A DNA stretch of 64,000 bases from Eledone cirrhosa (taxonomy: Eukaryota): the NCBI GenBank assembly GCA_964016885.1, contig OZ024741.1, positions 401,512,001-401,576,000 of the forward strand. Direction: 5' to 3'. Shown here one piece after another: positions 3,811 through 46,300 of this stretch (its first letter is position 1; the number at the start of each line of letters is the position of its first letter). A program made the position numbers and the translations under genes. The notes under the pieces were generated by a model. The model did not search any database. It worked only from the letters and a program-made list of their open reading frames with translations, and was not told the origin of the DNA.

Positions 3811-3974
3811 TACTTGCACAGGAGGAATCTTGAAATGTAGAAATGATAGCTGCAGCTGTCCAGAAGGCCAGTTCCATTGTAGAAATAATGAATGTATTGA
3901 ATCAATAAAGACCTGTGATAAACACGAAGACTGTAAAGATGGCTCAGATGAATCATTAGATATATGTGGTGAAG
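3811..3974 (+). CDS. Exon: end of Cys-rich (VWC/TIL-like) segment + LDL-receptor class A repeat
   Basis: tatattacag| [54 protein letters not shown] |gttagc. Classic C..F.C....CI.....CD...DC.DGSDE. An in-phase alternative donor after 3968 is possible. Confidence 0.9.
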
Positions 3975-19300: not shown

Positions 19301-22300
19301 ATTATTACTGACAAAAGGTCTTATATAAGATTATTATGAGAGGTCTTGAGATAAATATAAACACTTCAAATAAACATAGAACCAGAGGTGGCTTTAGGTT
19401 GTTTGATATCACAAGGATTAAATCATGTTTCAGAATTTCTGTTGTTGAATTTAGTGAAAGAGATTAACAAAATATTATTATTATAGATATGCCTTTATTA
19501 AGTTCTCCATGTATATCAGTTGTGAGATTATATAAAATTAACTAAACTGATTAAATTTAGTGTTCAATTTACTATGAATTAATAAAATAAAACATAACCA
19601 TGAATCTTGGATAATAAATGAAAGAATACACAGCAAGTACAATGGTCTTTGGAGGAATGTTACTCAATAAAGTGTGTAGCTCAGAGATGAGAGTCACTCC
19701 ATCTGGAGCTGCTACTTTCCAAATTGAGAGATCACAGCTCCGATAGTATTGATATGTGGTTAGAATGTCTCAGGAAAAAAATCACTGGAAATATTTTCTG
19801 GACAAAACCAAGCAACAGGAGACCCAGAGGTAGACCAATAACAATTTGGTGGGTTGGATAACATCCATGAGCTCAGCTGGTCTCGCTTGGAGATTTAGCT
19901 GGATCAATTGGAGATGGTTGCTTCTGACAAGACCCACTGGAAGACCTGCTTGAGGACTCTCCCCACACGGCTCTCCCAGGAACAAGTAGGTGAAGAAGTA
20001 CTAGAAAACATGGTTTAATCGTTTCTGTTGTTGAAAGAAGGAAATATTGATAATTATAATAAAGATATTTTTATTAAGGTATCCATGAAATATAATAATA
20101 GTTTCATATTTTTATTTCTCTACCAGGACAACTTAAAAGACAGTGTTGTTAACATTCCATTTGGTACATCATCAACAATTGTAAAGATTTATTTCAAAGG
20201 TGTCTCAGCACATTGTGATATAACTGTCACAGTTTCTATAAATGGATGTTTTGAATCACAGAGTAAGTATTTCAGTTTTGTTGTCATATTTCAGACATTG
20301 TTGTCATTATATAGTCATATAATTGGTTGTATATATTGTATCTGGTGATATATATATGTATATATTGTCATAGAAGCTATAAATGGATTGTACATTAAAT
20401 TGATGAGTAAAAAGGAATTTATTGAAAGAGAATGATGTAGGAATAGAAACTCTATATATTAAAAAAGATATAGAAATATAATATGGCAAACTTATATTTA
20501 TATAATTATTGACTCTACAATTAACTCTAAATATATTTATAGGAATATATTCAAGGTCAATATTTTACCAATTTCAAATTCTATATAAATGAGGTACTAA
20601 AATATTTTCGTTTTGGAGATTAATATTGCATCGGTTTTACTTTGTTGGTAAATATTACACCTGTTTCTTTTTGCCGTTAAATAATACACAGGTTCCACTT
20701 TGGAAGTGAAATTTGTTTTTCCTCTGTTTTTAATGAATATGGCCTTCAAAACTCTCAGATAATGGAAAAAGAATTTCCGCAATGGTGATGTGAAAGAAAA
20801 ACTATACTTTAGACAACACTTTAAAACATTTAAAATATCAAAATATAATTTCCATAAATATGTTCTCCACTCCTTTCCAAACCACAGTCTCTAAACATAA
20901 TGTATTGATTATCATTTTTCCCGGCATCGAAGATGCTACTTCTTTTCTGAACTAAGTCTCTCAAAAGTCTACCGTGGGTCCTGGAGGTGAAAGGTTATTT
21001 ATTATTTTTTTGGTTGTCAAAATTAGGGTGTATCCTCGAGGACGAAGCATCTTCGGCACCGGGAAATACAGTAGCTAACTTGATATATACACAAGGCTTG
21101 GATTGTTGTCCCCATTTCTCAGACATATAATAGTGGGTCGGCTTATAATCTAATTGGTTTGTATAGAGAATAAATTCCAAACCTGGAAGCAGGGACTTAG
21201 AGAATAAATTCCAAACCTGGAAGCAGGGACTAGAGAGAAAGGGCCTCAAAGTCAACATGACAAAGACTAAGGTCCTTATAAGTAGACGAGAAAACAGAAC
21301 CCAGATCCCCTCAGGGAAATGGCCTTGCTCAGTATGTAGGAAAGGTGTAGGTAGGAACTCCATTCTTTGCCCCAAATGCAAACAATGGGTACACAAGAGA
21401 TGTAGCGGGATCTCAGGAAGCTTAATTAAGAATGTAGGATTCACATGCAGCAGCTGTGCTGAAACAGCAAGCAAACAGCCACAGGAAACAAGTACCACCA
21501 ATCTCTGGGTGGGCCCTGTAGAAACAGTAGACAGCTTCTGCTACCTAGGTGACCGAATTAGCAACGGAGGTGGGTGCTCAGAAAGTACAATAACTAGGGT
21601 AAGAACGGGATGGAAGAAGTTTAGGGAACTACTACCACTGCTAGCTGCAAAAGGCTTCTCCCTCAGAATGAAAGGCAGACTGTATGATGCGTGTATCCGA
21701 ACAGCGATGTTGCATGGTAGTGAGACCTGGGCGCTGAAGGTGGAAGACTTACGTAGATTAGAGAGAAACGAAGCCTGCATGCTCCGATGGATGTGTAACA
21801 GTAATATACGTGAACGACAAAGCATAAATGAATTGAGAGAGAGACTGAGCATAAGAGGAATCAAATGCTGCGTGCAGGAGAGGCGGTTACGCTGGTATGG
21901 ACATGTGATGCGTATGAAGGATGACAGCTGCATAAAAAGGTGCAGAGCACTAGAAGTTGACGGAAACCGCGGAGTGGGGAGACCCAAGATGACTTGGGAT
22001 GAGGTGATAAAAGCCGACCTTACCCAACTACACCTCTCAAAGTCAATGACACACGACCGTGACTTCTGGCGTCACGCAGTAATACAGGGTACCCGACCTC
22101 CCATGGGTACATGCTGAAGCATATAAACAATATGCCCCCCCCCCCCCACCGCAAGGTGGTCGTGGAGGTGCCACGGCAAAAAAGCACCCAGCCCACACTG
22201 TAAAGTGGACGTGTAGGCGCCACGAAAAAGCACCCAGCACTCACTGTAAATGAGGTTGGTGTTAGGAAGGGCATCCAGCTGTAGAAATCAAGCCAGATCA

Positions 22301-25300
22301 GTTCCTGTATGAGCAAGGCATGGTCAGCCGACCAGACACTGCCCACAACAGGACAACCCGTCTAACCCATGCTAGCGTGGAAGAACGGACGTAAAACGGT
22401 GATGATGATGATGATGATGATGATAAATATATTCTTTATCTGAATGAATAATTATACTTTAAAATATTTTCATTTAAAAGTGTTTCACTAAATATTATGT
22501 TTTTACAAGTATATGTGACAACTCATTAAAAGTTTTATTTTAACAAACTAAGTGGAGGCACATGGCTTAGTGGTTAAAGCATTGGCCCTGCAATCGAAAG
22601 GTTGTGAGTTCAATTCTCAGACCGGGTGATGTGTTGTTTCCTTGAGCAAGACACTTTATTTCACATTGCTCCAGTTTACTCAGCTGTAGAAATGAGATGA
22701 TAGGGACTAGGGACCCTATCATTCCACTGTAAAGTGGTCATGGAGGTGCCATGGCAAAAAAACACTCAGCACTCACTGTAAATGAGGTTGGTGTTAGGAA
22801 GGGCATCCAGCTGTAGAAATGAAGCCAGAATCAGTCCCGTCCTACCCTTGCAAGCAGGGAAAAGGTGGACGTAAAAATGATGATGATGAAAAAATGAAAT
22901 GATGATAAGTATATGATTTTATTACATCCAATGTGTATCATTATATTAGAATTTATCCTGATACAATCTGAACTAATATTTTGAAATCATTTAATTTTAG
23001 GCACAACAACACAACCAACAACGCAAACAGGTATGATGTATATATGTCATCAATGCTAGACTTACCTATAAGCAAAGTAAACTACACCTCTCAGATGACT
23101 CATTATTTTAAATATATTTTTACTTTATTATCAGTTTTTAATCTTTAACAGTAAATCATTGTTAGATATATATTTATATATCTATATCTAGGGCAGGTAA
23201 ACTTCCTGAGATCCATGGACAAGTCCTCTACAGTGGTTTCTGTCCCTCATTATTGCTGCCATGTTCTGTGTCTCCAAAAGACCAGTGTCTGTCGTTAGGG
23301 CATCAACATATGTCAACCTTGATCTCCCTCTTCCAGTGTGTCCATGCAGTGGCTCCCACAGGAGCACTGAGTGCAGTGTCAACTCTGGATGTCGGTGAGC
23401 ATATCCAGTCAACCTCAGTGCTACTTTATTATTTACTCTTTATCATTAACATTGATATAAAAAATAATAAAATCGTATATAATTATTTTAAATTTTTTAC
23501 CCAGTTATTTTTAGAGAAGGTCCTCAAATTTCATATAGCTTAGGGCCTAATCAGGTGAAAGTCCCACCCTGTATGTCAATAAGTTAATATATAATTACAT
23601 AATTCTATTATTTCTATAATTCTACCATTTCTAAAGAGTTTCATATCTTCTCTTCTGTAGAATCTTGGTGTGTATTTAATGATGGTTTAACAGATCAGAC
23701 TTTAGTAAGGAACTGGGACATTACATTGTCAAGCAATGAAGAAAATAAAAATGATATTAGGCCAGGAGGAAAAGGTTGGAAACCAGCAGAAGATGATAAG
23801 AAACCTTTTGTTACCATTTTTGTTGGGGATTCTTTGAGGTATGGTGCATCAATACATCTGGGCAAAGCTAAAGATATCAAAAGTTTTGATGTTATTCTAT
23901 CTGGAGGTGAAGACAATAAGAAATATATGGTAAGTTATCTGAAATCGTGACTATCTTTATTTTCTCAGCAGTAAAATATATGATTTTAATAAATTTTCTC
24001 ATATATCATCATCATCATCATTTTACGTCAGTTTTTCCACACTTGCATAGTTTGGACAGGTATTTTCAGTACAGTATCTCTCCATTAGTTGCATTTCTGT
24101 CACCTCTTCCGTGAGCTTTATTGATCTGAGATCACACTTGGTTAAGTTTGTGACATTATTATTTAAATTAACTCAGCTGACTATATTAATTATGTATATT
24201 TAACTATCATTTAATAAATTAAAACATGGTCATGAATATTGGGTAATGACCAAAAGAATATGATTGAAAATATAAGAGGACAAAATGGCCCTCTTTTGAG
24301 GAGTTATTGGTGTCATGTTACTCAATAGATGAGTGCTTCTGACAGGACCCACTGGAAAGCCTGCTTGAGGAGTCTGCCCACATGACACTCCAAGAAGTGG
24401 GTGGGCAAAGAAGAAAAAGAAAAAAACATGCTTTATTTGTTTCTGTTGTTTAATTTATTTAAAGAAGGAAATATTGATAATTATAATAGAGATAAGTTTA
24501 AGTTATTCATGAAATATAATAATAGTTTCATATTTTTATATCTCTACCAGGACAACTTAAAAGACAGTGTTGTTAACATTCCATTTGGTACATCATCAAC
24601 AATTGTAAAGATTTCTTTCAAAGGTGTCTCAGCACATTGTGATATAACTGTCACAGTTTCTATAAATGGATGTTTTGAATCACAGAGTAAGTATTTCAAT
24701 GAGTATTTCTCATCCTTGTTAACTTCATTTCTTGTAAGTAGCCATAGACCTACTAATGGAACATATCAAATCTTCCAAATGTAGCAGTTACAGTTCAAAT
24801 TACTTTCTTTAGCATCTACATTACTCTATATTTACTGTTATATTTTCACAGTAAAGACTCTACTTCACATAATTATCTCACATAAAATAGAATCTATGAG
24901 ATTTTGATATTATATATTGTGAGATCAATACTTTAACATGAGTATGAGTGGCCAGTTATGGCCAGTTTGGACATAAAGAGGTGAGAGATTTCTGGCCGGA
25001 TATGGGCAATTTAAATGCTAAAGGGTTAATTTCTTGTGTGCTTGCAATCTTTCCATTTGAAATTTCAAATTCTTGCTATAACTAAACAATAAACCAGATA
25101 ATTTTGGAAGTATATCAATGATTTTCTGTAAATGTGGTTTCAATTCTTCCATTTAATATAACCCTCATTATCGTAACTTCTCTCTTTTTCTCTCACAGCA
25201 ACAACTCCAGCACTAACAACAACAATGTTACCAACTACCACAGCTCTCCCAACAAGTATGTATAAACAATTATTATTCAATAAAGGGTGGTGGGTTGGCA

Positions 25301-28300
25301 GTAATTGATAGAGGGTTTTATCCTTGCAAGGTTCAATAAAATAAAATACCAGTAACGAGCTGGAGTGAATTTAATCAATTTTCCCCTCCTCCAAAATTAT
25401 TATTATTTTCATACCTTTGATGACATCAAATTTTGGGGTAAAAATTGCATCTTACACAATTAAAAAATACAATACTCTTTAAAAAAACGTTTTGATTTTG
25501 ATTTTGATTAAATGTTATATTTTTTTTCTTATTTTTTGTATTAAATTGCTATATTTTCCATACATCTTTACTATGTTTTTGTTGTCTTTGCATGAATAAC
25601 AGGTTACTGAAAAATTTAAATTAGAAACCATTATTCAATATATAATAAAGTCATTAAATATTGTTTAATAAACTTTATAGGAAATGTAATAGGTTCAGAT
25701 AGAGAAAAATAGCTGTAAATACAGTCGGTTGCTATAAATAGCTCAGAAAATTTAAACTGTAAAATGTAGGAAGTTTCTAAGCTCAATGGCTAGAGCACTC
25801 AGTTGGTATCTGAGATATATAAGGTCCAATTTCTCGTAGCGTCTGCTGGCAACGTTTTTCCTATGTATAGGTTGTCTTTCCCCAACTTTCTAAGCTATTT
25901 ATAGCAAACAACTTTATTTAAACTTATTTATTTGCATCTGAACATACTTTGTTTTCTATAAACTTAATAATCTCTCAGTACTTTGAATGTTCAAAGTTTT
26001 CATACAATAGTTTTATATATTTTATATATGATTAAGATGTACAAGATATATTAGAAAAGAATAATTATATATTTGCTCACAATGATATAATATGTAATTT
26101 TCGTTTCTTTTATTTCATTTCAGCCACAATTATTCCAACAACATCACCACAACCAACAACACAAACAGGTATGATGTATATATGTCATCAATGCTAGACT
26201 TACCTATAAGCAAAATAAACTACACCTCTCAGAGGACTCATTATTTTAAATATATTTTTACTTTATTATCAGTTTTTAATCTTTAACAGTAAATCATTGT
26301 TAGATATATATTTATATATCTATATCTAGGGCAGGTAAACTTCCTGAGATCCATGGACAAGTCCTCTACAGTGGTTTCTGTCCCTCATTATTGCTGCCAT
26401 GTTCTGTGTCTCCAAAAGACCAGTGTCTGTCGTTAGGGCATCAACATATGTCAACCTTGATCTCCCTCTTCCAGTGTGTCCATGCAGGGGCTCCCACAGG
26501 AGCACTGAGTGCAGTGTCAACTCTGGATGTCGGTGAGCATATCCAGTCAACCTCAGTGCTACTTTATTATTTACTCTTTATCATTAACATTGATATAAAA
26601 AATAATAAAATCGTATATAATTATTTTAAATTTTTTACCCAGTTATTTTTAGAGAAGGTCCTCAAATTTCATATAGCTTAGGGCCTAATCAGGTGAAAGT
26701 CCCACCCTGTATGTCAATAAGTTAATATATAATTACATAATTCTATTATTTCTATAATTCTACCATTTCTAAAGAGTTTCATATCTTCTCTTCTGTAGAA
26801 TCTTGGTGTGTATTTAATGATGGTTTAACAGATCAGACTTTAGTAAGGAACTGGGACATTACATTGTCAAGCAATGAAGAAAATAAAAATGATATTAGGC
26901 CAGGAGGAAAAGGTTGGAAACCAGCAGAAGATGATAAGAAACCTTTTGTTACCATTTTTGTTGGGGATTCTTTGAGGTATGGTGCATCAATACATCTGGG
27001 CAAAGCTAAAGATATCAAAAGTTTTGATGTTATTCTATCTGGAGGTGAAGACAATAAGAAATATATGGTAAGTTATCTGAAATCGTGACTATCTTTATTT
27101 TCTCAGCAGTAAAATATATGATTTTAATAAATTTTCTCATATATCATCATCATCATCATTTTACGTCAGTTTTTCCACACTTGCATAGTTTGGACAGGTA
27201 TTTTCAGTACAGTATCTCTCCATTAGTTGCATTTCTGTCACCTCTTCCGTGAGCTTTATTGATCTGAGATCACACTTGGTTAAGTTTGTGACATTATTAT
27301 TTAAATTAACTCAGCTGACTATATTAATTATGTATATTTAACTATCATTTAATAAATTAAAACATGGTCATGAATATTGGGTAATGACCAAAAGAATATG
27401 ATTGAAAATATAAGAGGACAAAATGGCCCTCTTTTGAGGAGTTATTGGTGTAATGTTACTCAATAGATGAGTGCTTCTGACAGGACCCACTGGAAAGCCT
27501 GCTTGAGGAGTCTGCCCACATGACACTCCAAGAAGTAGGTGGGCAAAGAAGAAAAAGAAAAAAACATGCTTTATTTGTTTCTGTTGTTTAATTTATTTAA
27601 AGAAGGAAATATTGATAATTATAATAGAGATAAGTTTAAGTTATTCATGAAATATAATAATAGTTTCATATTTTTATATCTCTACCAGGACAACTTAAAA
27701 GACAGTGTTGTTAACATTCCATTTGGTACGTCATCAACAATTGTAAAGATTTCTTTCAAAGGTGTCTCAGCACATTGTGATATAACTGTCACAGTTTCTA
27801 TAAATGGATGTTTTGAATCACAGAGTAAGTATTTCAATGAGTATTTCTCATCCTTGTTAACTTCATTTCTTGTAAGTAGCCATAGACCTACTAATGGAAC
27901 ATATCAAATCTTCCAAATGTAGCAGTTACAGTTCAAATTACTTTCTTTAGCATCTACATTACTCTATATTTACTGTTATATTTTCACAGTAAAGACTCTA
28001 CTTCACATAATTATCTCACATAAAATAGAATCTATGAGATTTTGATATTATATATTGTGAGATCAATACTTTAACATGAGTATGAGTGGCCAGTTATGGC
28101 CAGTTTGGACATAAAGAGGTGAGAGATTTCTGGCCGGATATGGGCAATTTAAATGCTAAAGGGTTAATTTCTTGTGTGCTTGCAATCTTTCCATTTGAAA
28201 TTTCAAATTCTTGCTATAACTAAACAATAAACCAGATAATTTTGGAAGTATATCAATGATTTTCTGTAAATGTGGTTTCAATTCTTCCATTTAATATAAC

Positions 28301-31300
28301 CCTCATTATCGTAACTTCTCTCTTTTTCTCTCACAGCAACAACTCCAGCACTAACAACAACAATGTTACCAACTACCACAGCTCTCCCAACAAGTATGTA
28401 TAAACAATTATTATTCAATAAAGGGTGGTGGGTTGGCAGTAATTGATAGAGGGTTTTATCCTTGCAAGGTTCAATAAAATAAAATACCAGTAACGAGCTG
28501 GAGTGAATTTAATCAATTTTCCCCTCCTCCAAAATTATTATTATTTTCATACCTTTGATGACATCAAATTTTGGGGTAAAAATTGCATCTTACACAATTA
28601 AAAAATACAATACTCTTTAAAAAAACGTTTTGATTTTGATTTTGATTAAATGTTATATTTTTTTTCTTATTTTTTGTATTAAATTGCTATATTTTCCATA
28701 CATCTTTACTATGTTTTTGTTGTCTTTGCATGAATAACAGGTTACTGAAAAATTTAAATTAGAAACCATTATTCAATATATAATAAAGTCATTAAATATT
28801 GTTTAATAAACTTTATAGGAAATGTAATAGGTTCAGATAGAGAAAAATAGCTGTAAATACAGTCGGTTGCTATAAATAGCTCAGAAAATTTAAACTGTAA
28901 AATGTAGGAAGTTTCTAAGCTCAATGGCTAGAGCACTCAGTTGGTATCTGAGATATATAAGGTCCAATTTCTCGTAGCGTCTGCTGGCAACGTTTTTCCT
29001 ATGTATAGGTTGTCTTTCCCCAACTTTCTAAGCTATTTATAGCAAACAACTTTATTTAAACTTATTTATTTGCATCTGAACATACTTTGTTTTCTATAAA
29101 CTTAATAATCTCTCAGTACTTTGAATGTTCAAAGTTTTCATACAATAGTTTTATATATTTTATATATGATTAAGATGTACAAGATATATTAGAAAAGAAT
29201 AATTATATATTTGCTCACAATGATATAATATGTAATTTTCGTTTCTTTTATTTTATTTCAGCCACAATTATTCCAACAACATCACCACAACCAACAACAC
29301 AAACAGGTATGATGTATATATGTCATCAATGCTAGACTTACCTATAAGCAAAATAAACTACACCTCTCAGAGGACTCATTATTTTAAATATATTTTTACT
29401 TTATTATCAGTTTTTAATCTTTAACAGTAAATCATTGTTAGATATATATTTGTGTCGACAAATGCCCAAAACTCCGAGTTGGTACCATCAATGTAGGCTC
29501 AATGAAAGGAAGAGCAGGAGAAATCGTAGAAATGCTAGAGCGAAAGGAAGTTGATGTATGCTGTGTGCAAGAGACTAGATGGAGAGGAGGGTCTGCTAGA
29601 GTCCTTGTAGGAAAAAGCCAGTGCTACAAATTTTTCTGGGTGGGAAATGACGATGGGATGGGTGGTGTAGGTATACTATTAGCTGACAAGTGGGTAGATA
29701 AAGTAATCTCAGTGTACAGGGTAAATGCAAGAATCATTAAACTCAGACTAGTCCTGAATAAGACAATTACCACAATAATATCAGCTTACGCACCCCAATC
29801 GGGGCTGCCAGACGAACTTAAGGATAGGTTTTACGAGTCCCTAATACACACTACTGCTCTAACAGACGACAAGGACTTCCTAATCATTGCAGGAGATTTT
29901 AACGGACACATAGGTAAACACTGCGACGGCTTCAATAGAGTACATGGAGGCCATGGAGTTGGCACAAGGAATGAGGAAGGATTCAGACTTCTAGAATTCT
30001 GCGACGCCAATGACATGTCGATATGTAACACAAACTTTAAAAAACCCGACAACCACCTGATCACCTATAGATCAGGGGAGCACTCTAGTCAGTTAGATTT
30101 TATCCTCATCAGAGGACGTGACAGATGGACGGTCGTAAACACAAAAGCCTTCCCTAGTGAGGAATGTACATCCCAACATAGCTTAGTTGTCAGCGACCTC
30201 ACGGTCAGAACTAGACGAGCCCTGAAACAGAGGCCAACCTGGAGAAGAAAGATCTGGAAGCTAAAAGTCCCCTCAACCAGTAACAGATTTAAAGATATTT
30301 TACTCAACGCCTACGACAGTAAAGAAGAACAGATAGAGACATTTAACGTAGAAGAGAACTGGGAGTTCCTAAAAAATAACTTACTAGAGGCGACGGATGA
30401 GGTTTGTGGCTGGAGTAAGACCTCAAGCAGGAGGAGAGTGACTTGGTGGTGGAACAATAAGGTAGATGAAGCAGTCAAGGCCAAGAGACAGGCATGGAAA
30501 GAATGGAAGAACGGGGGGAGCAGGGTACATTACATAGAGACCAAGAGGGAAGCTAGGCGACAAGTATACTTAGCTAGGAGGGAAGCAGAGGATAGAAAAT
30601 TCAAGCATGTTTTACAACGTGAGGACCAGAAACAGGAGGTATTCAAGATTGCGAGGCAGTGTGTCAGAGATAGTTGTGATGTCATTGGAGAGAAGTGTAT
30701 CCGGAATGATAAAGGTGAGCTTGCCCTCACAAGTGCTGAGAAGAAAGATGCATGGAAGAGTCATTATGATAGATTACTAAATGAGGAGAATGCATGGGAA
30801 GAAGAGACCCTACCCCACGTAGACCCTATAGAGGGACCAGCAGTACAAGTCAGCGGCAGCGTAGTAAGTAAGGCAATCAGAGATATGAAGATAGGGAAGG
30901 CAACCGGTCCATCGGGTATAGCTGCCGAGATGCTGAAGGCATCTGGGTCTGTAGGTCACACTATAACCACACGTATCGTTAACCAGGTAATACTAGAGGG
31001 GGCCATACCAAAAGATTGGTGCAGTAGCATCATTGTCAACTGCTACAAAGGTAAAGGCGATGCACTAGATAGAGGAAACTATAGAGGTATAAAGTTGATG
31101 GACCAGGTCATGAAAGTAACAGAAAGAGTTATAGCACAGCTGATTAGGGACCGGGTGAATATAGACGAGATGCAATTTGGGTTTGTTCCAGGGAAAGGCA
31201 CCACTGATGCGCTCTTCCTTGTGAGGCAATTACAGGAAAAGTACCTAGCTAAAAGTAAGCCACTCTACTTGGCATTTGTCGACCTTGAGAAAGCCTTTGA

Positions 31301-34300
31301 CAGAGTTCCACGTGCAGTAATCTGGTGGGCTCTTAGAAAACTAGGAGTAGATGAATGGCTTGTGAAAGCGGTACAAGCCATGTATAGGGGAGCAGTCAGC
31401 AAAGTTAGGATTGGCAATGAGTATAGCGAGGAATTTAGCGTACAGGTTGGGGTCCACCAGGGCTCTGTTCTTAGCCCTCTCCTGTTCATCATAGTCCTGC
31501 AGGCAATAACGGAGGAGTTTAAGACCGGATGCCCATGGGAACTCCTGTATGCTGATGACCTCGCACTCATAGCTGAATCTATGGTAGAACTAGAGAATAA
31601 ATTCCAAACCTGGAAGCAGGGACTAGAGAGAAAGGGCCTCAAAGTCAACATGACAAAGACTAAGGTCCTTATAAGTAGACGAGAAAACAGAACCCAGATC
31701 CCCTCAGGGAAATGGCCTTGCTCAGTATGTAGGAAAGGTGTAGGTAGGAACTCCATTCTTTGCCCCAAATGCAAACAATGGGTACACAAGAGATGTAGCG
31801 GGATCTCAGGAAGCTTAATTAAGAATGTAGGATTCACATGCAGCAGCTGTGCTGAAACAGCAAGCAAACAGCCACAGGAAACAAGTACCACCAATCTCTG
31901 GGAGGGCCCTGTAGAAACAGTAGACAGCTTCTGCTACCTAGGTGACCGAATTAGCAACGGAGGTGGGTGCTCAGAAAGTACAATAACTAGGGTAAGAACG
32001 GGATGGAAGAAGTTTAGGGAACTACTACCACTGCTAGCTGCAAAAGGCTTCTCCCTCAGAATGAAAGGCAGACTGTATGATGCGTGTATCCGAACAGCGA
32101 TGTTGCATGGTAGTGAGACCTGGGCGCTGAAGGTGGAAGACTTACGTAGATTAGAGAGAAACGAAGCCTGCATGCTCCGATGGATGTGTAACAGTAATAT
32201 ACGTGAACGACAAAGCATAAATGAATTGAGAGAGAGACTGAGCATAAGAGGAATCAAATGCTGCGTGCAGGAGAGGCGGTTACGCTGGTATGGACATGTG
32301 ATGCGTATGAAGGATGACAGCTGCATAAAAAGGTGCAGAGCACTAGAAGTTGATGGAAACCGCGGAGTGGGGAGACCCAAGATGACTTGGGATGAGGTGA
32401 TAAAAGCCGACCTTACCCAACTACACCTCTCAAAGTCAATGACACACGACCGTGACTTCTGGCGTCACGCAGTAATACAGGGTACCCGACCTCCCATGGG
32501 TACATGCTGAAGCATATAAACAATATGCCCCCCCCCCCCACCGCAAGGTGGTCGTGGAGGTGCCACGGCAAAAAAGCACCCAGCCCACACTGTAAAGTGG
32601 ACGTGTAGGTGCCACGAAAAAGCACCCAGCACTCACTGTAAATGAGGTTGGTGTTAGGAAGGGCATCCAGCTGTAGAAATCAAGCCAGATCAGTTCCTGT
32701 ATGAGCAAGGCATGGTCAGCCGACCAGACACTGCCCACAACAGGACAACCCGTCTAACCCATGCTAGCGTGGAAGAACGGACGTAAAACGGTGATGATGA
32801 TGATGATGATGATATCTATATCTAGGGCAGGTAAACTTCCTGAGATCCATGGACAAGTCCTCTACAGTGGTTTCTGTCCCTCATTATTGCTGCCATGTTC
32901 TGTGTCTCCAAAAGACCAGTGTCTGTCGTTAGGGCATCAACATATGTCAACCTTGATCTCCCTCTTCCAGTGTGTCCATGCAGGGGCTCCCACAGGAGCA
33001 CTGAGTGCAGTGTCAACTCTGGATGTCGGTGAGCATATCCAGTCAACCTCAGTGCTACTTTATTATTTACTCTTTATCATTAACATTGATATAAAAAATA
33101 ATAAAATCGTATATAATTATTTTAAATTTTTTACCCAGTTATTTTTAGAGAAGGTCCTCAAATTTCATATAGCTTAGGGCCTAATCAGGTGAAAGTCCCA
33201 CCCTGTATGTCAATAAGTTAATATATAATTACATAATTCTATTATTTCTATAATTCTACCATTTCTAAAGAGTTTCATATCTTCTCTTCTGTAGAATCTT
33301 GGTGTGTATTTAATGATGGTTTAACAGATCAGACTGTAGTAAGGAACTGGGACATTACATTGTCAAGCAATGAAGAAAATAAAAATGATATTAGGCCAGG
33401 AGGAAAAGGTTGGAAACCAGCAGAAGATGATAAGAAACCTTTTGTTACCATTTTTGTTGGGGATTCTTTGAGGTATGGTGCATCAATACATCTGGGCAAA
33501 GCTAAAGATATCAAAAGTTTTGATGTTATTCTATCTGGAGGTGAAGACAATAAGAAATATATGGTAAGTTATCTGAAATCGTGACTATCTTTATTTTCTC
33601 AGCAGTAAAATATATGATTTTAATAAATTTTCTCATATATCATCATCATCATCATTTTACGTCAGTTTTTCCACACTTGCATAGTTTGGACAGGTATTTT
33701 CAGTACAGTATCTCTCCATTAGTTGCATTTCTGTCACCTCTTCCGTGAGCTTTATTGATCTGAGATCACACTTGGTTAAGTTTGTGACATTATTATTTAA
33801 ATTAACTCAGCTGACTATATTAATTATGTATATTTAACTATCATTTAATAAATTAAAACATGGTCATGAATATTGGGTAATGACCAAAAGAATATGATTG
33901 AAAATATAAGAGGACAAAATGGCCCTCTTTTGAGGAGTTATTGGTGTAATGTTACTCAATAGATGAGTGCTTCTGACAGGACCCACTGGAAAGCCTGCTT
34001 GAGGAGTCTGCCCACATGACACTCCAAGAAGTGGGTGGGCAAAGAAGAAAAAGAAAAAAACATGCTTTATTTGTTTCTGTTGTTTAATTTATTTAAAGAA
34101 GGAAATATTGATAATTATAATATGATGTTGTTTACTCGAGAGAAGGCTACGTTGGTATGGACACGTGATGCGCATGAAAGTCGATAGCTGTATAACAAAG
34201 TGCAGGGCAATAAAGATAGACGGTAGTCACGGAATAGGCAGACCTAGAAAAACCTGGGACGAGCTGATAAACTCCGACATCACACACTTACACCTCTCCA

Positions 34301-37300
34301 AGACAATGTCACTGGACCGAGACCTTTGGCGGTACTCAGTAACAGAGAAGACCCGCCTTACCTAAATATATAGTAAAACCTACTCCAGCCAGTAGGCATC
34401 TCTAACAAAATACACCCCGTCGCACCACCCCCACCCCCACCCCATCCACACCACCCCGTTCTATGTAAAGTTATGTTGGTGCCGCGCCATCGAGGCCGAA
34501 ACAAATGAGATCGTGTAGGTGTCACGACAAAAAAACACACAGTCCACGCTGTAATGTGGCCGTGTAGGCAACACGGTAAAAACCTCCCAGACCCACACTG
34601 TAAATGTGGTTGGTGTTAGGAAGGGCATCCAACTGTAGAAAACCTGCCAGACAGTCCTATGCGAGCAAGACAATCACTCTTGCCTCAAGTGGGACTACCC
34701 CCGTCCAAACCCATGCAAGCGTGGAACACGGACGTTAAACGTTGATGATGATGATGATGATGATGAATAGAGATAAGTTTAAGTTATTCATGAAATATAA
34801 TAATAGTTTCATATTTTTATATCTCTACCAGGACAACTTAAAAGACAGTGTTGTTAACATTCCATTTGGTACATCATCAACAATTGTAAAGATTTCTTTC
34901 AAAGGTGTCTCAGCACATTGTGATATAACTGTCACAGTTTCTATAAATGGATGTTTTGAATCACAGAGTAAGTATTTCAATGAGTATTTCTCATCCTTGT
35001 TAACTTCATTTCTTGTAAGTAGCCATAGACCTACTAATGGAACATATCAAATCTTCCAAATGTAGCAGTTACAGTTCAAATTACTTTCTTTAGCATCTAC
35101 ATTACTCTATATTTACTGTTATATTTTCACAGTAAAGACTCTACTTCACATAATTATCTCACATAAAATAGAATCTATGAGATTTTGATATTATATATTG
35201 TGAGATCAATACTTTAACATGAGTATGAGTGGCCAGTTATGGCCAGTTTGGACATAAAGAGGTGAGAGATTTCTGGCCGGATATGGGCAATTTAAATGCT
35301 AAAGGGTTAATTTCTTGTGTGCTTGCAATCTTTCCATTTGAAATTTCAAATTCTTGCTATAACTAAACAATAAACCAGATAATTTTGGAAGTATATCAAT
35401 GATTTTCTGTAAATGTGGTTTCAATTCTTCCATTTAATATAACCCTCATTATCGTAACTTCTCTCTTTTTCTCTCACAGCAACAACTCCAGCACTAACAA
35501 CAACAATGTTACCAACTACCACAGCTCTCCCAACAAGTATGTATAAACAATTATTATTCAATAAAGGGTGGTGGGTTGGCAGTAATTGATAGAGGGTTTT
35601 ATCCTTGCAAGGTTCAATAAAATAAAATACCAGTAACGAGCTGGAGTCAATTTAATCAATTTTCCCCTCCTCCAAAATTATTATTATTTTCATACCTTTG
35701 ATGACATCAAATTTTGGGGTAAAAATTGCATCTTACACAATTAAAAAATACAATACTCTTTAAAAAAACGTTTTGATTTTGATTTTGATTAAATGTTATA
35801 TTTTTTTTCTTATTTTTTGTATTAAATTGCTATATTTTCCATACATCTTTACTATGTTTTTGTTGTCTTTGCATGAATAACAGGTTACTGAAAAATTTAA
35901 ATTAGAAACCATTATTCAATATATATTAAAGTCATTAAATATTGTTTAATAAACTTTATAGGAAATGTAATAGGTTCAGATAGAGAAAAATAGCTGTAAA
36001 TACAGTCGGTTGCTATAAATAGCTCAGAAAATTTAAACTGTAAAATGTAGGAAGTTTCTAAGCTCAATGGCTAGAGCACTCAGTTGGTATCTGAGATATA
36101 TAAGGTCCAATTTCTCGTAGCGTCTGCTGGCAACATTTTTCCTATGTATAGGTTGTCTTTCCCCAATTTTCTAAACTATTTATAGCAAACAACTTTATTT
36201 AAACTTATTTATTTGCATCTGAACATACTTTGTTTTCTATAAACTTAATAATCTCTCAGTACTTTGAATGTTCAAAGTTTTCATACAATAGTTTTATATT
36301 TTTTATATATGATTAAGATGTACAAGATATATTAGAAAAGAATAATTATATATTTGCTCACAATGATATAATATGTAATTTTCGTTTATTTTATTTTATT
36401 TCAGCCACAATTATTCCAACAACAACACCACAACCAACAACACAAACAGGTATGATGTATATATGTCATCAATGCTAGACTTACCTATAAGCAAAATAAA
36501 CTACACCTCTCAGGGGACTCATTATTTTAAATATATTTTTACTTTATTATCAGTTTTTAATCTTTAACACTAAATAATAGTTAGTTATATATTTATATAT
36601 CTATATCTAGGGCGGGTAAAATTCCTGAGATCCATGGACCAGTCCTCTACAGCGGTTTCTGTCCCCCATTATTGCTACCATGTTCTGTATCTCCAAGAGA
36701 CCAGTGTCTGTCCTTAGGGCATCATCATATGTCAACCTTGATCTTCCTCTTCCAGTGTGTCCATGCACGGTCTCGCACAGGAGCACTGAGTGCAGTGTCA
36801 ACTCTGGATGTCGGTGAGCATATCCAGTCAACCTCAGTGCTACTTTATTATTTACTCTTTATCATTAACATTGATATAAAAAATAATAAAATCGTATATA
36901 ATTATTTTAAATTTTTTACCCAATTATTTTTAAAGAAGGTCCTCAATTTTCATATAGCTTAGGGCCTAATCAGGTGAAAGTCCCACCCTGTATGTCAATA
37001 AGTTAATATATAATTACATAATTCTATTATTTCTATAATTCTACCATTTCTAAAGAGTTTCATATCTTCTCTTCTGTAGAATCTTGGTGTGTATTTAATG
37101 ATGGTTTAACAGATCAGACTTTAGTAAGGAACTGGGACATTACATTGTCAAGCAATGAAGAAAATAAAAATGATATTAGGCCAGGAGGAAAAGGTTGGAA
37201 ACCAGCAGAAGATGATAAGAAACCTTTTGTTACCATTTTTGTTGGGGATTCTTTGAGGTATGGTGCATCAATACATCTGGGCAAAGCTAAAGATATCAAA

Positions 37301-40300
37301 AGTTTTGATGTTATTCTATCTGGAGGTGAAGACAATAAGAAATATATGGTAAGTTATCTGAAATCGTGACTATCTTTATTTTCTCAGCAGTAAAATATAT
37401 GATTTTAATAAATTTTCTCATATATCATCATCATCATCATTTTACGTCAGTTTTTCCACACTTGCATAGTTTGGACAGGTATTTTCAGTACAGTATCTCT
37501 CCATTAGTTGCATTTCTGTCACCTCTTCCGTGAGCTTTATTGATCTGAGATCACACTTGGTTAAGTTTGTGACATTATTATTTAAATTAACTCAGCTGAC
37601 TATATTAATTATGTATATTTAACTATCATTTAATAAATTAAAACATGGTCATGAATATTGGGTAATGACCAAAAGAATATGATTGAAAATATAAGAGGAC
37701 AAAATGGCCCTCTTTTGAGGAGTTATTGGTGTCATGTTACTCAATAGATGAGTGCTTCTGACAGGACCCACTGGAAAGCCTGCTTGAGGAGTCTGCCCAC
37801 ATGACACTCCAAGAAGTGGGTGGGCAAAGAAGAAAAAGAAAAAAACATGCTTTATTTGTTTCTGTTGTTTAATTTATTTAAAGAAGGAAATATTGATAAT
37901 TATAATATGATGTTGTTTACTCGAGAGAAGGCTACGTTGGTATGGACACGTGATGCGCATGAAAGTCGATAGCTGTATAACAAAGTGCAGGGCAATAAAG
38001 ATAGACGGTAGTCACGGAATAGGCAGACCTAGAAAAACCTGGGACGAGCTGATAAACTCCGACATCACACACTTACACCTCTCCAAGACAATGTCACTGG
38101 ACCGAGACCTTTGGCGGTACTCAGTAACAGAGAAGACCCGCCTTACCTAAATATATAGTAAAACCTACTCCAGCCAGTAGGCATCTCTAACAAAATACAC
38201 CCCGTCGCACCACCCCCACCCCCACCCCATCCACACCACCCCGTTCTATGTAAAGTTATGTTGGTGCCGCGCCATCGAGGCCGAAACAAATGAGATCGTG
38301 TAGGTGTCACGACAAAAAAACACACAGTCCACGCTGTAATGTGGCCGTGTAGGCAACACGGTAAAAACCTCCCAGACCCACACTGTAAATGTGGTTGGTG
38401 TTAGGAAGGGCATCCAACTGTAGAAAACCTGCCAGACAGTCCTATGCGAGCAAGACAATCACTCTTGCCTCAAGTGGGACTACCCCCGTCCAAACCCATG
38501 CAAGCGTGGAACACGGACGTTAAACGTTGATGATGATGATGATGATGATGAATAGAGATAAGTTTAAGTTATTCATGAAATATAATAATAGTTTCATATT
38601 TTTATATCTCTACCAGGACAACTTAAAAGACAGTGTTGTTAACATTCCATTTGGTACATCATCAACAATTGTAAAGATTTCTTTCAAAGGTGTCTCAGCA
38701 CATTGTGATATAACTGTCACAGTTTCTATAAATGGATGTTTTGAATCACAGAGTAAGTATTTCAATGAGTATTTCTCATCCTTGTTAACTTCATTTCTTG
38801 TAAGTAGCCATAGACCTACTAATGGAACATATCAAATCTTCCAAATGTAGCAGTTACAGTTCAAATTACTTTCTTTAGCATCTACATTACTCTATATTTA
38901 CTGTTATATTTTCACAGTAAAGACTCTACTTCACATAATTATCTCACATAAAATAGAATCTATGAGATTTTGATATTATATATTGTGAGATCAATACTTT
39001 AACATGAGTATGAGTGGCCAGTTATGGCCAGTTTGGACATAAAGAGGTGAGAGATTTCTGGCCGGATATGGGCAATTTAAATGCTAAAGGGTTAATTTCT
39101 TGTGTGCTTGCAATCTTTCCATTTGAAATTTCAAATTCTTGCTATAACTAAACAATAAACCAGATAATTTTGGAAGTATATCAATGATTTTCTGTAAATG
39201 TGGTTTCAATTCTTCCATTTAATATAACCCTCATTATCGTAACTTCTCTCTTTTTCTCTCACAGCAACAACTCCAGCACTAACAACAACAATGTTACCAA
39301 CTACCACAGCTCTCCCAACAAGTATGTATAAACAATTATTATTCAATAAAGGGTGGTGGGTTGGCAGTAATTGATAGAGGGTTTTATCCTTGCAAGGTTC
39401 AATAAAATAAAATACCAGTAACGAGCTGGAGTCAATTTAATCAATTTTCCCCTCCTCCAAAATTATTATTATTTTCATACCTTTGATGACATCAAATTTT
39501 GGGGTAAAAATTGCATCTTACACAATTAAAAAATACAATACTCTTTAAAAAAACGTTTTGATTTTGATTTTGATTAAATGTTATATTTTTTTTCTTATTT
39601 TTTGTATTAAATTGCTATATTTTCCATACATCTTTACTATGTTTTTGTTGTCTTTGCATGAATAACAGGTTACTGAAAAATTTAAATTAGAAACCATTAT
39701 TCAATATATATTAAAGTCATTAAATATTGTTTAATAAACTTTATAGGAAATGTAATAGGTTCAGATAGAGAAAAATAGCTGTAAATACAGTCGGTTGCTA
39801 TAAATAGCTCAGAAAATTTAAACTGTAAAATGTAGGAAGTTTCTAAGCTCAATGGCTAGAGCACTCAGTTGGTATCTGAGATATATAAGGTCCAATTTCT
39901 CGTAGCGTCTGCTGGCAACATTTTTCCTATGTATAGGTTGTCTTTCCCCAATTTTCTAAACTATTTATAGCAAACAACTTTATTTAAACTTATTTATTTG
40001 CATCTGAACATACTTTGTTTTCTATAAACTTAATAATCTCTCAGTACTTTGAATGTTCAAAGTTTTCATACAATAGTTTTATATTTTTTATATATGATTA
40101 AGATGTACAAGATATATTAGAAAAGAATAATTATATATTTGCTCACAATGATATAATATGTAATTTTCGTTTATTTTATTTTATTTCAGCCACAATTATT
40201 CCAACAACAACACCACAACCAACAACACAAACAGGTATGATGTATATATGTCATCAATGCTAGACTTACCTATAAGCAAAATAAACTACACCTCTCAGGG

Positions 40301-43300
40301 GACTCATTATTTTAAATATATTTTTACTTTATTATCAGTTTTTAATCTTTAACACTAAATAATAGTTAGTTATATATTTATATATCTATATCTAGGGCGG
40401 GTAAAATTCCTGAGATCCATGGACCAGTCCTCTACAGCGGTTTCTGTCCCCCATTATTGCTACCATGTTCTGTATCTCCAAGAGACCAGTGTCTGTCCTT
40501 AGGGCATCATCATATGTCAACCTTGATCTTCCTCTTCCAGTGTGTCCATGCACGGTCTCGCACAGGAGCACTGAGTGCAGTGTCAACTCTGGATGTCGGT
40601 GAGCATATCCAGTCAACCTCAGTGCTACTTTATTATTTACTCTTTATCATTAACATTGATATAAAAAATAATAAAATCGTATATAATTATTTTAAATTTT
40701 TTACCCAATTATTTTTAAAGAAGGTCCTCAATTTTCATATAGCTTAGGGCCTAATCAGGTGAAAGTCCCACCCTGTATGTCAATAAGTTAATATATAATT
40801 ACATAATTCTATTATTTCTATAATTCTACCATTTCTAAAGAGTTTCATATCTTCTCTTCTGTAGAATCTTGGTGTGTATTTAATGATGGTTTAACAGATC
40901 AGACTTTAGTAAGGAACTGGGACATTACATTGTCAAGCAATGAAGAAAATAAAAATGATATTAGGCCAGGAGGAAAAGGTTGGAAACCAGCAGAAGATGA
41001 TAAGAAACCTTTTGTTACCATTTTTGTTGGGGATTCTTTGAGGTATGGTGCATCAATACATCTGGGCAAAGCTAAAGATATCAAAAGTTTTGATGTTATT
41101 CTATCTGGAGGTGAAGACAATAAGAAATATATGGTAAGTTATCTGAAATTGTGACTATCTTTATTTTCTCAGCTCTGTACGGTGGCTATGGTGAAAGAAG
41201 TTTTATGGTGGACGAGGTTGAGAGGACTGAGGACAGATGCCTTTCTCTCCGGACAACAATTGATTCCCTTCTTTAAGTATCACTTTAGAAGGAGAATCAG
41301 GGTGGAGAGAGAGGCACTGCACCCCAGTAAATTTACTGAAAGGTGGGTGAATGAAGCGAAAATGGCCCGAGTGATTGGACCTTCTCTGTTTATAAGCCTG
41401 TAGGTTGAGGAAGAGAGCAAAAGGAAGAAAGGAGCACTTGCACAACACGCTCCTGGAGTTGAGGGTTGTTCTATCGACGGGGTATTAAACAACCCATTTG
41501 TGGCGTCTCCCCCCTATTGGGGATTTCGATTATTGAAATTGTTTGTTTTTATATTTTTTTACACGACTGTATGTAAAATCCCCGGCATGTCTTTGTATTG
41601 TCCCCTTTTCTTGTTGCGCCCTTGTGGCTAATAAAGAAATCTATCTTTATTTTCTCAGCAAATATATGATTTTAATAAATTTTCTCATATATCATCATCA
41701 TCATCATTTTACGTCAGTTTTTCCACACTTGCGTAGTTTGGACAGGTATTTTCAGTACAGTATCTCTCCATTAGTTGCATTTCTGTCACCTCTTCCGTGA
41801 GCTTTATTGATCTGAGATCACACTTGGTTAAGTTTGTGACATTATTATTTAAATTAACTCAGCTGACTATATTAATTATGTATATTTAACTATCATTTAA
41901 TAAATTAAAACATGGTCATGAATATTGGGTAATGACCAAAAGAATATGATTGAAAATATAAGAGGACAAAATGGCCCTCTTTTGAGGAGTTATTGGTGTA
42001 ATGTTACTCAATAGATGAGTGCTTCTGACAGGACCCACTGGAAAGCCTGCTTGAGGAGTCTGCCCACATGACACTCCAAGAAGTGGGTGGGCAAAGAAGA
42101 AAAAGAAAAAAACATGCTTTATTTGTTTCTGTTGTTTAATTTATTTAAAGAAGGAAATATTGATAATTATAATAGAGATAAGTTTAAGTTATTCATGAAA
42201 TATAATAATAGTTTCATATTTTTATATCTCTACCAGGACAACTTAAAAGACAGTGTTGTTAACATTCCATTTGGTACGTCATCAACAATTGTAAAGATTT
42301 CTTTCAAAGGTGTCTCAGCACATTGTGATATAACTGTCACAGTTTCTATAAATGGATGTTTTGAATCACAGAGTAAGTATTTCAATGAGTATTTCTCATC
42401 CTTGTTAACTTCATTTCTTGTAAGTAGCCATAGACCTACTAATGGAACATATCAAATCTTCCAAATGTAGCAGTTACAGTTCAAATTACTTTCTTTAGCA
42501 TCTACATTACTCTATATTTACTGTTATATTTTCACAGCAAAGACTGTACTTCACATAATTATCTCACATAAAATAGAATCTATGAGATTTTGATATTATA
42601 TATTGTGAGATCAATACCTTAACATGAGTATGAGTGGCCAGTTATAGCCAATTTGGACATAAAGAGGTGAGAGATTTCTGGCCGGATATGGGCAATTTAA
42701 ATGCTAAAGGGTTAATTTCTTGTGTGCTTGCAATCTTTCCATTTGAAATTTCAAATTCTTGCTATAACTAAACAATAAACCAGATAATTTTGGAAGTATA
42801 TCAATGATTTTCTGTAAATGTGGTTTCAATTCTTCCATTTAATATAACCCTCATTATCGTAACTTCTCTCTTTTTCTCTCACAGCAACAACTCCAGCACT
42901 AACAACAACAATGTTACCAACTACCACAGCTCTCCCAACAAGTATGTATAAACAATTATTATTCAATAAAGGGTGGTGGGTTGGCAGTAATTGATAGAGG
43001 GTTTTATCCTTGCAAGGTTCAATAAAATAAAATACCAGTAACGAGCTGGAGTGAATTTAATCAATTTTCCCCTCCTCCAAAATTATTATTATTTTCATAC
43101 CTTTGATGACATCAAATTTTGGGGTAAAAATTGCATCTTACACAATTAAAAAATACAATACTCTTTAAAGAAACATTTTGATTTTGATTTTGATTAAATG
43201 TTATATTTTTTTTCTTATTTTTTGTATTAAATTGCTATATTTTCCATACATCTTTACTATGTTTTTGTTGTCTTTGCATGAATAACAGGTTACTGAAAAA

Positions 43301-46300
43301 TTTAAATTAGAAACCATTATTCAATATATATTAAAGTCATTAAATATTGTTTAATAAACTTTATAGGAAATGTAATAGGTTCAGATAGAGAAAAATAGCT
43401 GTAAATACAGTCGGTTGCTATAAATAGCTCAGAAAATTTAAACTGTAAAATGTAGGAAGTTTCTAAGCTCAATGGCTAGAGCACTCAGTTGGTATCTGAG
43501 ATATATAAGGTCCAATTTCTCGTAGCGTCTGCTGGCAACGTTTTTCCTATGTATAGGTTGTCTTTCCCCAACTTTCTAAGCTATTTATAGCAAACAACTT
43601 TATTTAAACTTATTTATTTGCATCTGAACATACTTTGTTTTCTATAAACTTAATAATCTCTCAGTACTTTGAATGTTCAAAGTTTTCATACAATAGTTTT
43701 ATATATTTTATATATGATTAAGATGTACAAGATATATTAGAAAAGAATAATTATATATTTGCTCACAATGATATAATATGTAATTTTCGTTTCTTTTATT
43801 TTATTTCAGCCACAATTATTCCAACAACAACACCACAACCAACAACACAAACAGGTAACATATTTCTGATTAATAAAATTATCTGACATGTAGGAAATCA
43901 TGATAATAATCATGAAAATATTATTTTTCTATTGTATTTTACTTCTATTATTTTGTAGAATCATGGTGTGTAGCTAATGATGGTTTGGAAGATGTTTCAT
44001 TAATAAGATCCTGGGATATTAAATTGTCAAGCATTGATGAATATCCAGATGTTATTAGACCTGGAAACAAAGGATGGAGTCCTGCTATAGATGATAAGAA
44101 ACTTACAGTAACTATGTTTGTTGGTGACACTTTAAAATATGGTGCATCTATTCATCTCTTACGATCTAAATGTGTTGAGAAGTTTGATGTTATTCTAACT
44201 GGTGAAGAGGTTAAAGGATTTAGGGTAAGTTTCAATGAGTTTTATTCATTAGAAATGTATTATTACATTGAATACTTTATTGAAATTATTCCATTGTCAA
44301 TGTTGGTGTAGGAGTGGGAGATTAGCAGTATCGGTAGAATGTTGGATAACATGCTGTTTGGTATACAGTTATGTCCTTTTACTTAGAGTTCAAATCCCGC
44401 CAAGGTTATCTTTCCTTTTACTCCTTACAGAGTAGACAAAATAAAGTATCAGTAATGCTCTGGGGTCGATAAAGTGTCTTTCCCTTCCTCCCAAATTTGT
44501 TGGCCTTGTGTCTAAATTAGAAACCATTAATATTAGTAGTATTATCTAAATTTAGAGTTCATTAGAATGTATAATATATCTAATGCCATTTATAGTCCTT
44601 TCCTTTACTATACAGCTAAGTCTGCCATTCTTTACCCCTTCCCTTTCATTTTCCCTAATTAATTTTGTTTTTATCTTTTTTTTTTAAATATTTCCACCAT
44701 TGTAATACTTCTGCCTGTAAAATATAGTTGACATAAAATATTTATGTATAACAGATAACAAAATATTTCCACCATTGTAACATTTCTGCCTGTAAAATAT
44801 AGTTGACATAAAATGTTTATGTATAACAGATAAAAAAATATTTCCACCATTGTAACACTTCTGCCTGTAAAATATAGTTGACATAAAATGTTTATGTATA
44901 ACAGATAAACAAATATTTCCACCATTGTAACACTTCTGCCTGTAAAATATAGTTGACATAAAATGTTTATGTATAACAGATAACAAAATATTTCCACCAT
45001 TGTAACACCTCTGCCTGTAAAATATAGTTGACATAAAATGTTTATGTATAACAGATAACAAAATATTTCCACTATTGTAACACTTCTGACTGTAAAATAT
45101 AGTTGACATAAAATGTTTATGTATAACAGATAACAAAATAAAACTACTTAAATGAAAAAAAAAAAATTAATTATTATAGAAAAACATGTTACAAGGCTTT
45201 GTATATAATATTACTGTATGTTCAGAGGTAATTTGTATTGATATCCATATAACATTCTCAGGCTATAATTGAATGTATTTACAGTAAAATGATGAGAGTA
45301 GATCAGAATAGTGTAATATGATTTTCATTGATGCCAATTATCTGTGAAAATAAATTGAAATAAGTTGGGGAAATATATGTTGTGATGTCAGTTATACTGC
45401 ATCTAAAGTCTGTCTCAAGACCAGAGGCTCATCAGACCAGTGCTTATCCTGGTTTCCATGGTATAAAGCAACTGAGTGTACACTACTTCCCCCTAGACAG
45501 GATGCCAGTCCATCATAGAGTTAGGCCCACTCCCCAGTTATTGCTGGTACTCATTGTCAGCTGAGTATACTGGAGCAATGTGAAATGAAATGTTTTGTTC
45601 AAGAACACAATACACAACCCAGTCCAGGAATTGAACCCATGACATTACGATCATAAGTTCAACACCCTTACCACTAGGCCATGTACCACCCAGTCTAGGA
45701 ATCAAACCCATGATATTATGATTGAAAGTCCAACGCCCTTACCATATGGCCACACACATACACAGTTATACTACATATTATGTTGTAATGATATTTTTTA
45801 TGTAATGTTTCTTCATATATAATTTAGTGGTTCATCTTGAATAATTCTAATTAATTATACTATATTTACATAAATTTAGATATCATTTTAAGATATTTCC
45901 ATAACATAAACAGATGAGGTAATGTAAAGATTGTAGAGGCAGACGATCAGTAATTATGTGATATAATGTATTTTGGAACCATTGAATTAATATATTTTAA
46001 CTATTTGATAATTATTAGAAAACATTTTGTTTTGAAAATTATTCTGCATATTTTTCTGAAATGACCAAATCCTTACCTAATGCTGTTTTTCTTTTGTCAT
46101 TCTCGTGTGTACCTAGAATAATCCAAAAAGTGAAATTGTTAAAATACCATTTGGTACAACATCAGATACAGTAAAAATCCACTTTGTTCCTGTTTCACCC
46201 AATTGTAGACTGAGAGTTACAGTATCTTTCATAGGATGTTTTGAATCAGGCAGTAAGTAGGAATTGATTCCATTGATATAGAGTCCATGATTGAAATTGT

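Follow-up and report, generated by a model that had tools for sequence, protein, structure and literature searches.

DMBT1, a mucosal protein that binds microbes, is encoded by tandem exons for a globular domain and by short Ser/Thr/Pro linker exons. Since short-read assemblies collapse coding repeats of this multi-exon kind, most descriptions of them come from humans (LPA, DMBT1, NEB). In the KIV-2 array of LPA, units of several kilobases, made up of exons and introns, are reported to be 98-100% identical and to carry insertions of long interspersed nuclear elements (LINEs) in their introns (PMC7613587, PMC11201333), and the second of these papers also lists the SRCR repeat of DMBT1 as a coding variable number tandem repeat. 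LPA units are further reported to fall into subtypes with many intronic differences (KIV-2A and KIV-2B) and to be flanked by degenerate units with exons identical to those of the array, a nearby intron being 70-100% alike. Here I describe an array in the octopus Eledone cirrhosa, found in 64,000 nt of contig OZ024741.1 (assembly GCA_964016885.1, positions 401,512,001 to 401,576,000 of the forward strand; hereafter, the window). It is probable that this array was built by repeated unequal crossing-over and has been kept alike by patchy gene conversion, inside one large gene for a likely secreted mucin of the SCO-spondin/hemolectin-like kind.

Structure of the array

The type-1 array consists of five units (U1 to U5; Table 1) which, once insertions are taken out, all align on a core of 3138 bp without a single indel. 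Pairs of units differ at 7-40 sites of the core (98.7-99.8% identity), and the runs of exact identity between them, up to 518-1854 bp, are far above chance expectation. The core has 48 variable sites, 45 of them in 2631 bp of intron and 3 in 507 bp of exon. Self-comparison finds the repeat similarity from 23003, within exon D0 of the preceding module M0, to 43857, 3 bp past exon D5. A module has four exons, A (269 nt, phases 1-0), B (136 nt, 0-1), C (57 nt, 1-1), and D (45 nt, 1-1), which sum to 507 nt or 169 codons, and every complete module in the window has a coding length divisible by three. With its insertions, the type-1 array is no clean tandem.

The original prediction for this stretch had named five near-identical units of 3138 bp, alike in introns as well as exons, at 23005..43854. 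It had also named a module bounded by phase-1 introns that may be added or lost without a frameshift, and type-2 units from about 58.6 kb. All of this holds; the type-2 units appear as a pair that begins at 58592 and has a period of 3104-3105 bp.

Probable unequal crossing-over and patchy conversion

The history of the array becomes legible when the units are recut so that each ends with its downstream intron (V1 to V4). V1 and V2 then differ at 5 positions and V3 and V4 at 2 in 3785 bases, while 31-34 differences separate one pair from the other. The D-A introns come in two types, a and b, distinguished by 22 differences within a 434-bp patch, and these differences reach beyond the high-copy repeat that the patch contains. 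The contrast between types amounts to 22-25 differences at positions 1-500 of the core against 9-14 at positions 501-3138 (Fisher p ~1e-10 to 1e-13). Divergence within the patch is about 5%; the remainder of the units are about 0.4% apart, mostly in introns. Because the patch has kept 22 differences and the other 2638 bp only 9-14, the array has a greater age than its overall identity would suggest, and part of it was overwritten. Incompatibility between sites affects 186 of 496 pairs in the original register and, after recutting, 10 of the 45 informative pairs (positions 501-3138), and sites 1284 and 1562 conflict with every simple duplication tree.

Then there is the evidence from the upstream edge. 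M0 has exons 99% identical to those of the array and alignable introns 11-12% diverged. Against U1, only 3 of its 402 coding bases differ, though the adjacent introns are diverged to that same degree. In the comparison with its module, M1, one of 84 synonymous sites has changed (dS 0.012), whereas 526 aligned intron bases contain 59 mismatches (p 0.0014). Synonymous sites do change in this gene, dS between type 1 and type 2 being 0.78-0.93.

I propose that the first extra unit arose by mispairing in exon D: D0 and D1 have about 28 nearly identical bases in common, and the repeat both begins and ends in D. An early duplication would have produced the two types of D-A intron, and the other 2.6 kb, with its 9-14 differences, would have been overwritten later. 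Further unequal exchanges would have doubled V1/V2 and, after a 647-bp insertion, V3/V4. A 3.4-kb LINE and the insert of U5 would each have entered a single unit and not been copied since. Exchange between the array and M0 likely goes on only where similarity remains high, that is, in the exons. Unequal crossing-over with conversion is likely the simplest account of all this, both processes being read from one haplotype sequence.

The earlier claim of an intragenic amplification that keeps the reading frame, with unequal crossing-over as its likely cause, is upheld. What that claim overlooked is the history marked by insertions and the patchy, partly exon-limited homogenisation. "Very recent," as the amplification had been called, suits its last rounds alone.

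An alternative view is that units are born and die without conversion, so that those seen are young duplicates and their exons resemble M0 through purifying selection. Most of the site conflict does go away in the right register, and the ratio of nonsynonymous to synonymous divergence (dN/dS) between types, 0.32-0.43, bespeaks a constrained domain. But selection on the protein does not explain a dS of 0.012 next to introns 11-12% diverged, nor does it explain a patch 5% diverged within units that are otherwise so similar and whose differences are mostly intronic. This alternative is unlikely, and unequal crossing-over accompanied by conversion remains my preferred reading.

Copy number

Could the array have been manufactured by the assembly? 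U1/U2 and U3/U4 might be haplotypes or repeated read paths set in tandem, leaving a real array of about three units. The few differences within the recut pairs (2 in 3785 for V3/V4, 5 in 3138 for V1/V2) could be allelic. To judge from contigs of one short-read run (X1) placed on 22430-26168, depth is 41.8-47.3 on six pieces of the core and 7.0 on a single-copy flank piece, a ratio of 6.0-6.8, where the window leads one to expect multiplicities of 4.3-5.2 and 1. A second depth baseline, the bin before exon D0, gives 6.4-7.9, or 10.8 if the contig ends early. Granted that the baseline is short and AT-rich, that contig depth is an imperfect measure of copy number, and that X1 may be the assembly's own sample, these values suggest about five to seven copies, not below five. 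Read depth over exon A was among the checks put forward earlier, and depth gives no sign of fewer units. X1 contained only 0.82 of the sampled words, and none of its contigs crosses a whole unit, which leaves some room for an artefact. On the other side, the units differ by substitutions, and none of the cores has an indel; the units hold distinct insertions with clean junctions; and comparable arrays are annotated in other species. I regard an artefact as improbable, a little more so than birth and death. In three runs of restriction-site-associated DNA from other samples, the unit's unique parts have a depth of about 0-1, too sparse to compare animals.

The encoded protein and its relatives

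The product of a module is a divergent discoidin (F5/8 type C, or F5/8C) domain, below Pfam detection, with a Thr/Pro linker. When a profile of 41 family rows was compared with PDB, 13 of 13 matches were to proteins bearing F5/8C (factor V-like, factor VIII, neuropilin-2), the best with E 4.6e-5 and the others with E 0.17-3.4. The predicted structure of a relative from O. sinensis (predicted local distance difference test score, pLDDT, 86) had 10 Foldseek matches with E<=0.001, all to discoidin, CBM32, or DOC folds. The predicted protein consists of 134-residue beads of discoidin fold, three Cys in each, on short Thr/Pro linkers that are probably O-glycosylated. Such an array of beads would make the protein multivalent, whether as a binder or as a cross-linker, in mucus or in the extracellular matrix.

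The nearest named relative, P0001 of Octopus bimaculoides, begins within a repeat and ends in TSP1, TIL, VWC, and a Cys-rich tail (12 Cys, no Pfam call). Since it ends this way, the gene is likely a secreted octopus mucin of the SCO-spondin/hemolectin-like kind; TSP1, TIL, and VWC are seen in the relative and not in the window, which the gene leaves. A fragment from O. vulgaris in the same cluster as P0001 carries the name SCO-spondin, and the window has one LDL-receptor class A (LDLa) domain, a mark of SCO-spondin, upstream of the array. Segments rich in Pro, Thr, and Ser (PTS) are present in linker exons C, D, and E5 and in a 287-codon Pro/Thr exon, and it is reported to be typical of mucin-like proteins in lophotrochozoans that F5/8C domains lie near PTS segments (PMC4948705). 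Pfam finds no VWD after the array in P0001 or P0045 of O. bimaculoides, so the 3+2 VWD layout of hemolectin proper is not seen there.

A profile search over 1.84 billion representatives yielded 33 matches with E<=0.001, and another search added one further relative. The long ones among these relatives have self-similar arrays of their own: O. sinensis P0050 (15 repeats, 14 of them full, median identity 81% and up to 100%), the nemertean Tubulanus P0018 (7 repeats, median 99%), the chiton Liolophura P0025 (7 repeats, median 89%), and O. bimaculoides P0045 (6 repeats, median 91%). Between different arrays, median identities are 10-25%, or 54-60% among the window types and O. bimaculoides. In P0050, P0018, and P0025, distant versions of the module each form an array of their own with near-identical repeats, without a convincing Pfam domain. 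In another set of records, 8 exon-A-like products form a cluster.

In both trees, each array forms one side of a branch. Concerted evolution, which the original prediction invoked, stands insofar as repeats group by array; because the window's two types are as distant as the species are, the trees speak for repeated homogenisation of arrays, not for concert at the level of species. The three forms of one protein annotated in O. bimaculoides (P0045, P0001, P0044) have 6, 5, and 3 repeats and differ by whole repeats. In the 5-repeat form, the switch falls within an identical stretch of 22 residues inside exon A (assuming the window's exon boundary), and so this form suggests a mis-joining or an allele with a deletion rather than plain exon skipping.

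No paper on the array or the domain family was found in the literature searched, which included few subscription papers. I offer as a tentative idea, one that may well prove wrong, that the gene is a member of a so far undescribed family of lophotrochozoan "discoidin-bead" mucins, whose lectin-like module, invisible to Pfam, has been repeatedly amplified and re-homogenised in each lineage. In octopods the module might form a multivalent glycan- or microbe-binding array, polymorphic in copy number and under selection; the array would then be an invertebrate analogue of DMBT1 and LPA, with a turnover that could be dated by intronic retrotransposons.

An unlikely role in gamete recognition

Urchin EBR1 has TSP1 domains, as does the octopus relative. 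The original prediction likened the array to EBR1 and abalone VERL, and a receptor evolving like them might show what is seen here: a core kept homogeneous between divergent edge repeats, as described for VERL (PMC2704960), and dN/dS of 0.7-0.8 among recent type-2 copies, although these have few changes and are confounded by conversion. The resemblance is an analogy only, and nothing ties the array to recognition between sperm and egg. The repeated domain is discoidin-like, whereas that of VERL is ZP-N, and the repeats of VERL are described as lacking introns (PMC2704960). A Pfam scan of the relative and of the scanned window exons gave no ZP, CUB, or metalloprotease domain, and dN/dS stays at or below 1 in every pair but one, which has a single change. 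Octopus skin mucus is reported to contain proteins named SCO-spondin and mucin (PMC11431876), and these, if they are products of the window gene, would also point away from gametes. A gamete receptor is very unlikely.

The gene model and its retrotransposons

Exons were placed by motif and each boundary was then checked, the model being built from the sequence and from colinearity with the O. bimaculoides protein. It predicts 42 exons on the + strand, all with AG/GT ends, and 2114 codons without a stop. The gene extends past both ends of the window, within which lie at least 11 related discoidin-like domains; E1 is the first exon located, and the start of the gene is further upstream. The domain of E3/E4 is 18-27% identical to those of the array, and that of M6 is 84-85% identical to those of M7-M9. 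M8 and M9, compared over 58592-60895 and 61696-64000, have 13 mismatches and one gap in 2305 bp (99.4%).

Table 1. Positions within the window of modules, exons, and repeats
Feature	Position	Strand	Description
Satellites	1-1201; 44686-45140; 51270-53082		units 81, 75, 61 bp; ~15, 6, 29 copies
Older RTE-like LINE relatives	54390-57050; 1537-2813	+	interrupted; 75% and 69% identical; same strand as gene
E1	3811..3974	+	tail of Cys-rich TILa-like segment (TILa E 0.75 only) and LDLa (PF00057, E 2.9e-9); AG/GT
E2	5389..5430	+	short linker, phase 1-1, open frame, AG/GT; acceptor uncertain
E3, E4	6524..7934 (6524-6804, 7808-7934)	+	divergent first discoidin-like domain; phases 1-0/0-1 as in array
Other LINE family	8234-14109		7.7-kb intron after E4; two copies, 96.8% identical; longer copy with endonuclease (10619-11674) and reverse transcriptase (11675-14080) frames, stop between
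E5	15628..15678	+	Thr/Pro linker, phase 1-1
M0	17967..23030	+	older type-1 module without exon C; A0 17967-18235, B0 20127-20262, D0 23001-23030
RTE-like LINE, 5'-truncated	21198..22419	+	99.7% identical to U3 LINE, ~10 kb upstream of it, same gene
U1	23031-26168 (3138 bp)	+	A 23661-23929, B 24551-24686, C 25199-25255, D 26124-26168; D-A intron type a
U2	26169-29306 (3138 bp)	+	A 26799-27067, B 27689-27824, C 28337-28393, D 29262-29306; type a
U3	29307-36449 (7143 bp)	+	A 33295-33563, B 34832-34967, C 35480-35536, D 36405-36449; type a
RTE-like LINE (3358 bp)	29454..32811	+	D-A intron of U3; open 1022-codon frame (endonuclease, reverse transcriptase, PHD finger); (GAT)n tail
3' fragment of related LINE (647 bp)	34119..34765	+	A-B intron of U3
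Second copy of 647-bp fragment	37904..38550	+	U4; 0/647 differences from U3 copy; duplicated along with unit
U4	36450-40234 (3785 bp)	+	A 37080-37348, B 38617-38752, C 39265-39321, D 40190-40234; type b
U5	40235-43854 (3620 bp)	+	A 40865-41133, B 42237-42372, C 42885-42941, D 43810-43854; type b
3' fragment (467 bp)	41174..41640	+	A-B intron of U5; 19-bp direct repeat on both sides; related to LINE at 8-14 kb
M6	43959..49103	+	type 2; A 43959-44224, B 46117-46252, C 48840-48896, D 49059-49103
M7	49208..58625	+	type 2; A 49208-49473, B 53514-53649, C 57556-57591, D 57765-58625
Partial exon B copy	53152-53226		acceptor and ~20 first bases of exon B, 311 bp upstream of true one
M8/M9	58592..64000	+	recent type-2 tandem pair, M9 interrupted by window end; A 58727-58992, B 59702-59837, C 61471-61527, D 61685-61729, A 61832-62097, B 62807-62942

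Exon D of M7 has grown internally into an 861-nt Pro/Thr minisatellite of 15-18-bp units, 287 codons in all, a classic mucin segment beside globular repeats. The partial copy of exon B may be a decoy splice site.

The RTE-like LINE family has been recently active, as its truncated copy is 99.7% identical and its 1022-codon frame is open; the copy in U3 has no clear target-site duplication. The insert of U5, net 482 bp, is different from that of U3 and U4. That a LINE reverse transcriptase copied spliced mRNA into cDNA that overwrote only exons is the least probable reading of all: young LINEs are present within the gene and the near-identical tracts of M0 and M1 stop 11-39 bases from splice sites on all four sides, but three whole introns are homogenised among U1-U5 and the 104-bp D-A intron of type 2 is, at 4% divergence, as similar as the exons on either side of it (2.6-4.4%), and so exchange at the level of DNA suffices.

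Comparison with known systems

Unequal crossing-over and conversion are already known to shape repeats, and the surprise would be greater if copy number turned out to vary and to be linked with ligand binding or immunity. The value of the locus lies in its being a resolved case from an invertebrate that brings its own internal markers, namely three insertions, two types of intron, and an older module at the flank. With them one can tell unequal crossing-over from gene conversion and ask whether insertions exclude units from homogenisation. The locus also reveals a divergent discoidin domain missed by Pfam, which recurs in self-similar arrays of mucin-like proteins of octopus, chiton, and nemertean.

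The lophotrochozoan SCO-spondin/hemolectin-like gel-forming mucins, so far as they are described in PMC4948705, share with the octopus gene F5/8C next to PTS-rich segments and LDLa and, with its relative, TSP1, TIL, VWC, and a Cys-rich tail. They differ in that the window's many discoidin-like domains are too divergent for Pfam and the three N-terminal VWD-C8-TIL units, which would lie upstream of the window, are not seen; hemolectin differs further in its 3+2 layout, there being no VWD after the array of the O. bimaculoides relative. DMBT1 resembles the octopus gene in its globular-domain and linker exons, but its fold is SRCR, and its variation in copy number and its ligands are established.

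Invertebrate and fungal repeats of exons with introns that evolve in concert are reported for Schistosoma SmPoMuc, Coccidioides SOWgp, and spider silk (PMC2576457). Unlike the octopus units, those of SmPoMuc are described there as having one small exon each, and in SmPoMuc and silk the introns are more homogenised than the exons, the reverse of the M0 edge.

VERL and EBR1 are large extracellular proteins with homogenised interior repeats (>95%) and divergent edge repeats (PMC2704960, PMC8830517). However, the repeats of VERL bind lysin and adjoin one another (PMC2704960), where the octopus unit has four introns, and EBR1 is an ADAMTS protein (PMC8830517).

KIV-2 of LPA is a much closer parallel than either. 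It has a kringle domain, two exons, and 5.5 kb per unit, and its polymorphism of 1-40 copies, with the corresponding isoform sizes, is reported as proven, whereas the octopus array is known from one assembly. The octopus gene, for its part, has two homogenised blocks of one domain, with Thr/Pro linker exons. Otherwise the match is nearly point for point: near-identical multi-kilobase units, frame-neutral in the octopus; intronic subtypes, to which types a and b correspond; a degenerate flanking unit with exons nearly identical to those of the array, here M0; and LINE insertions in the introns.

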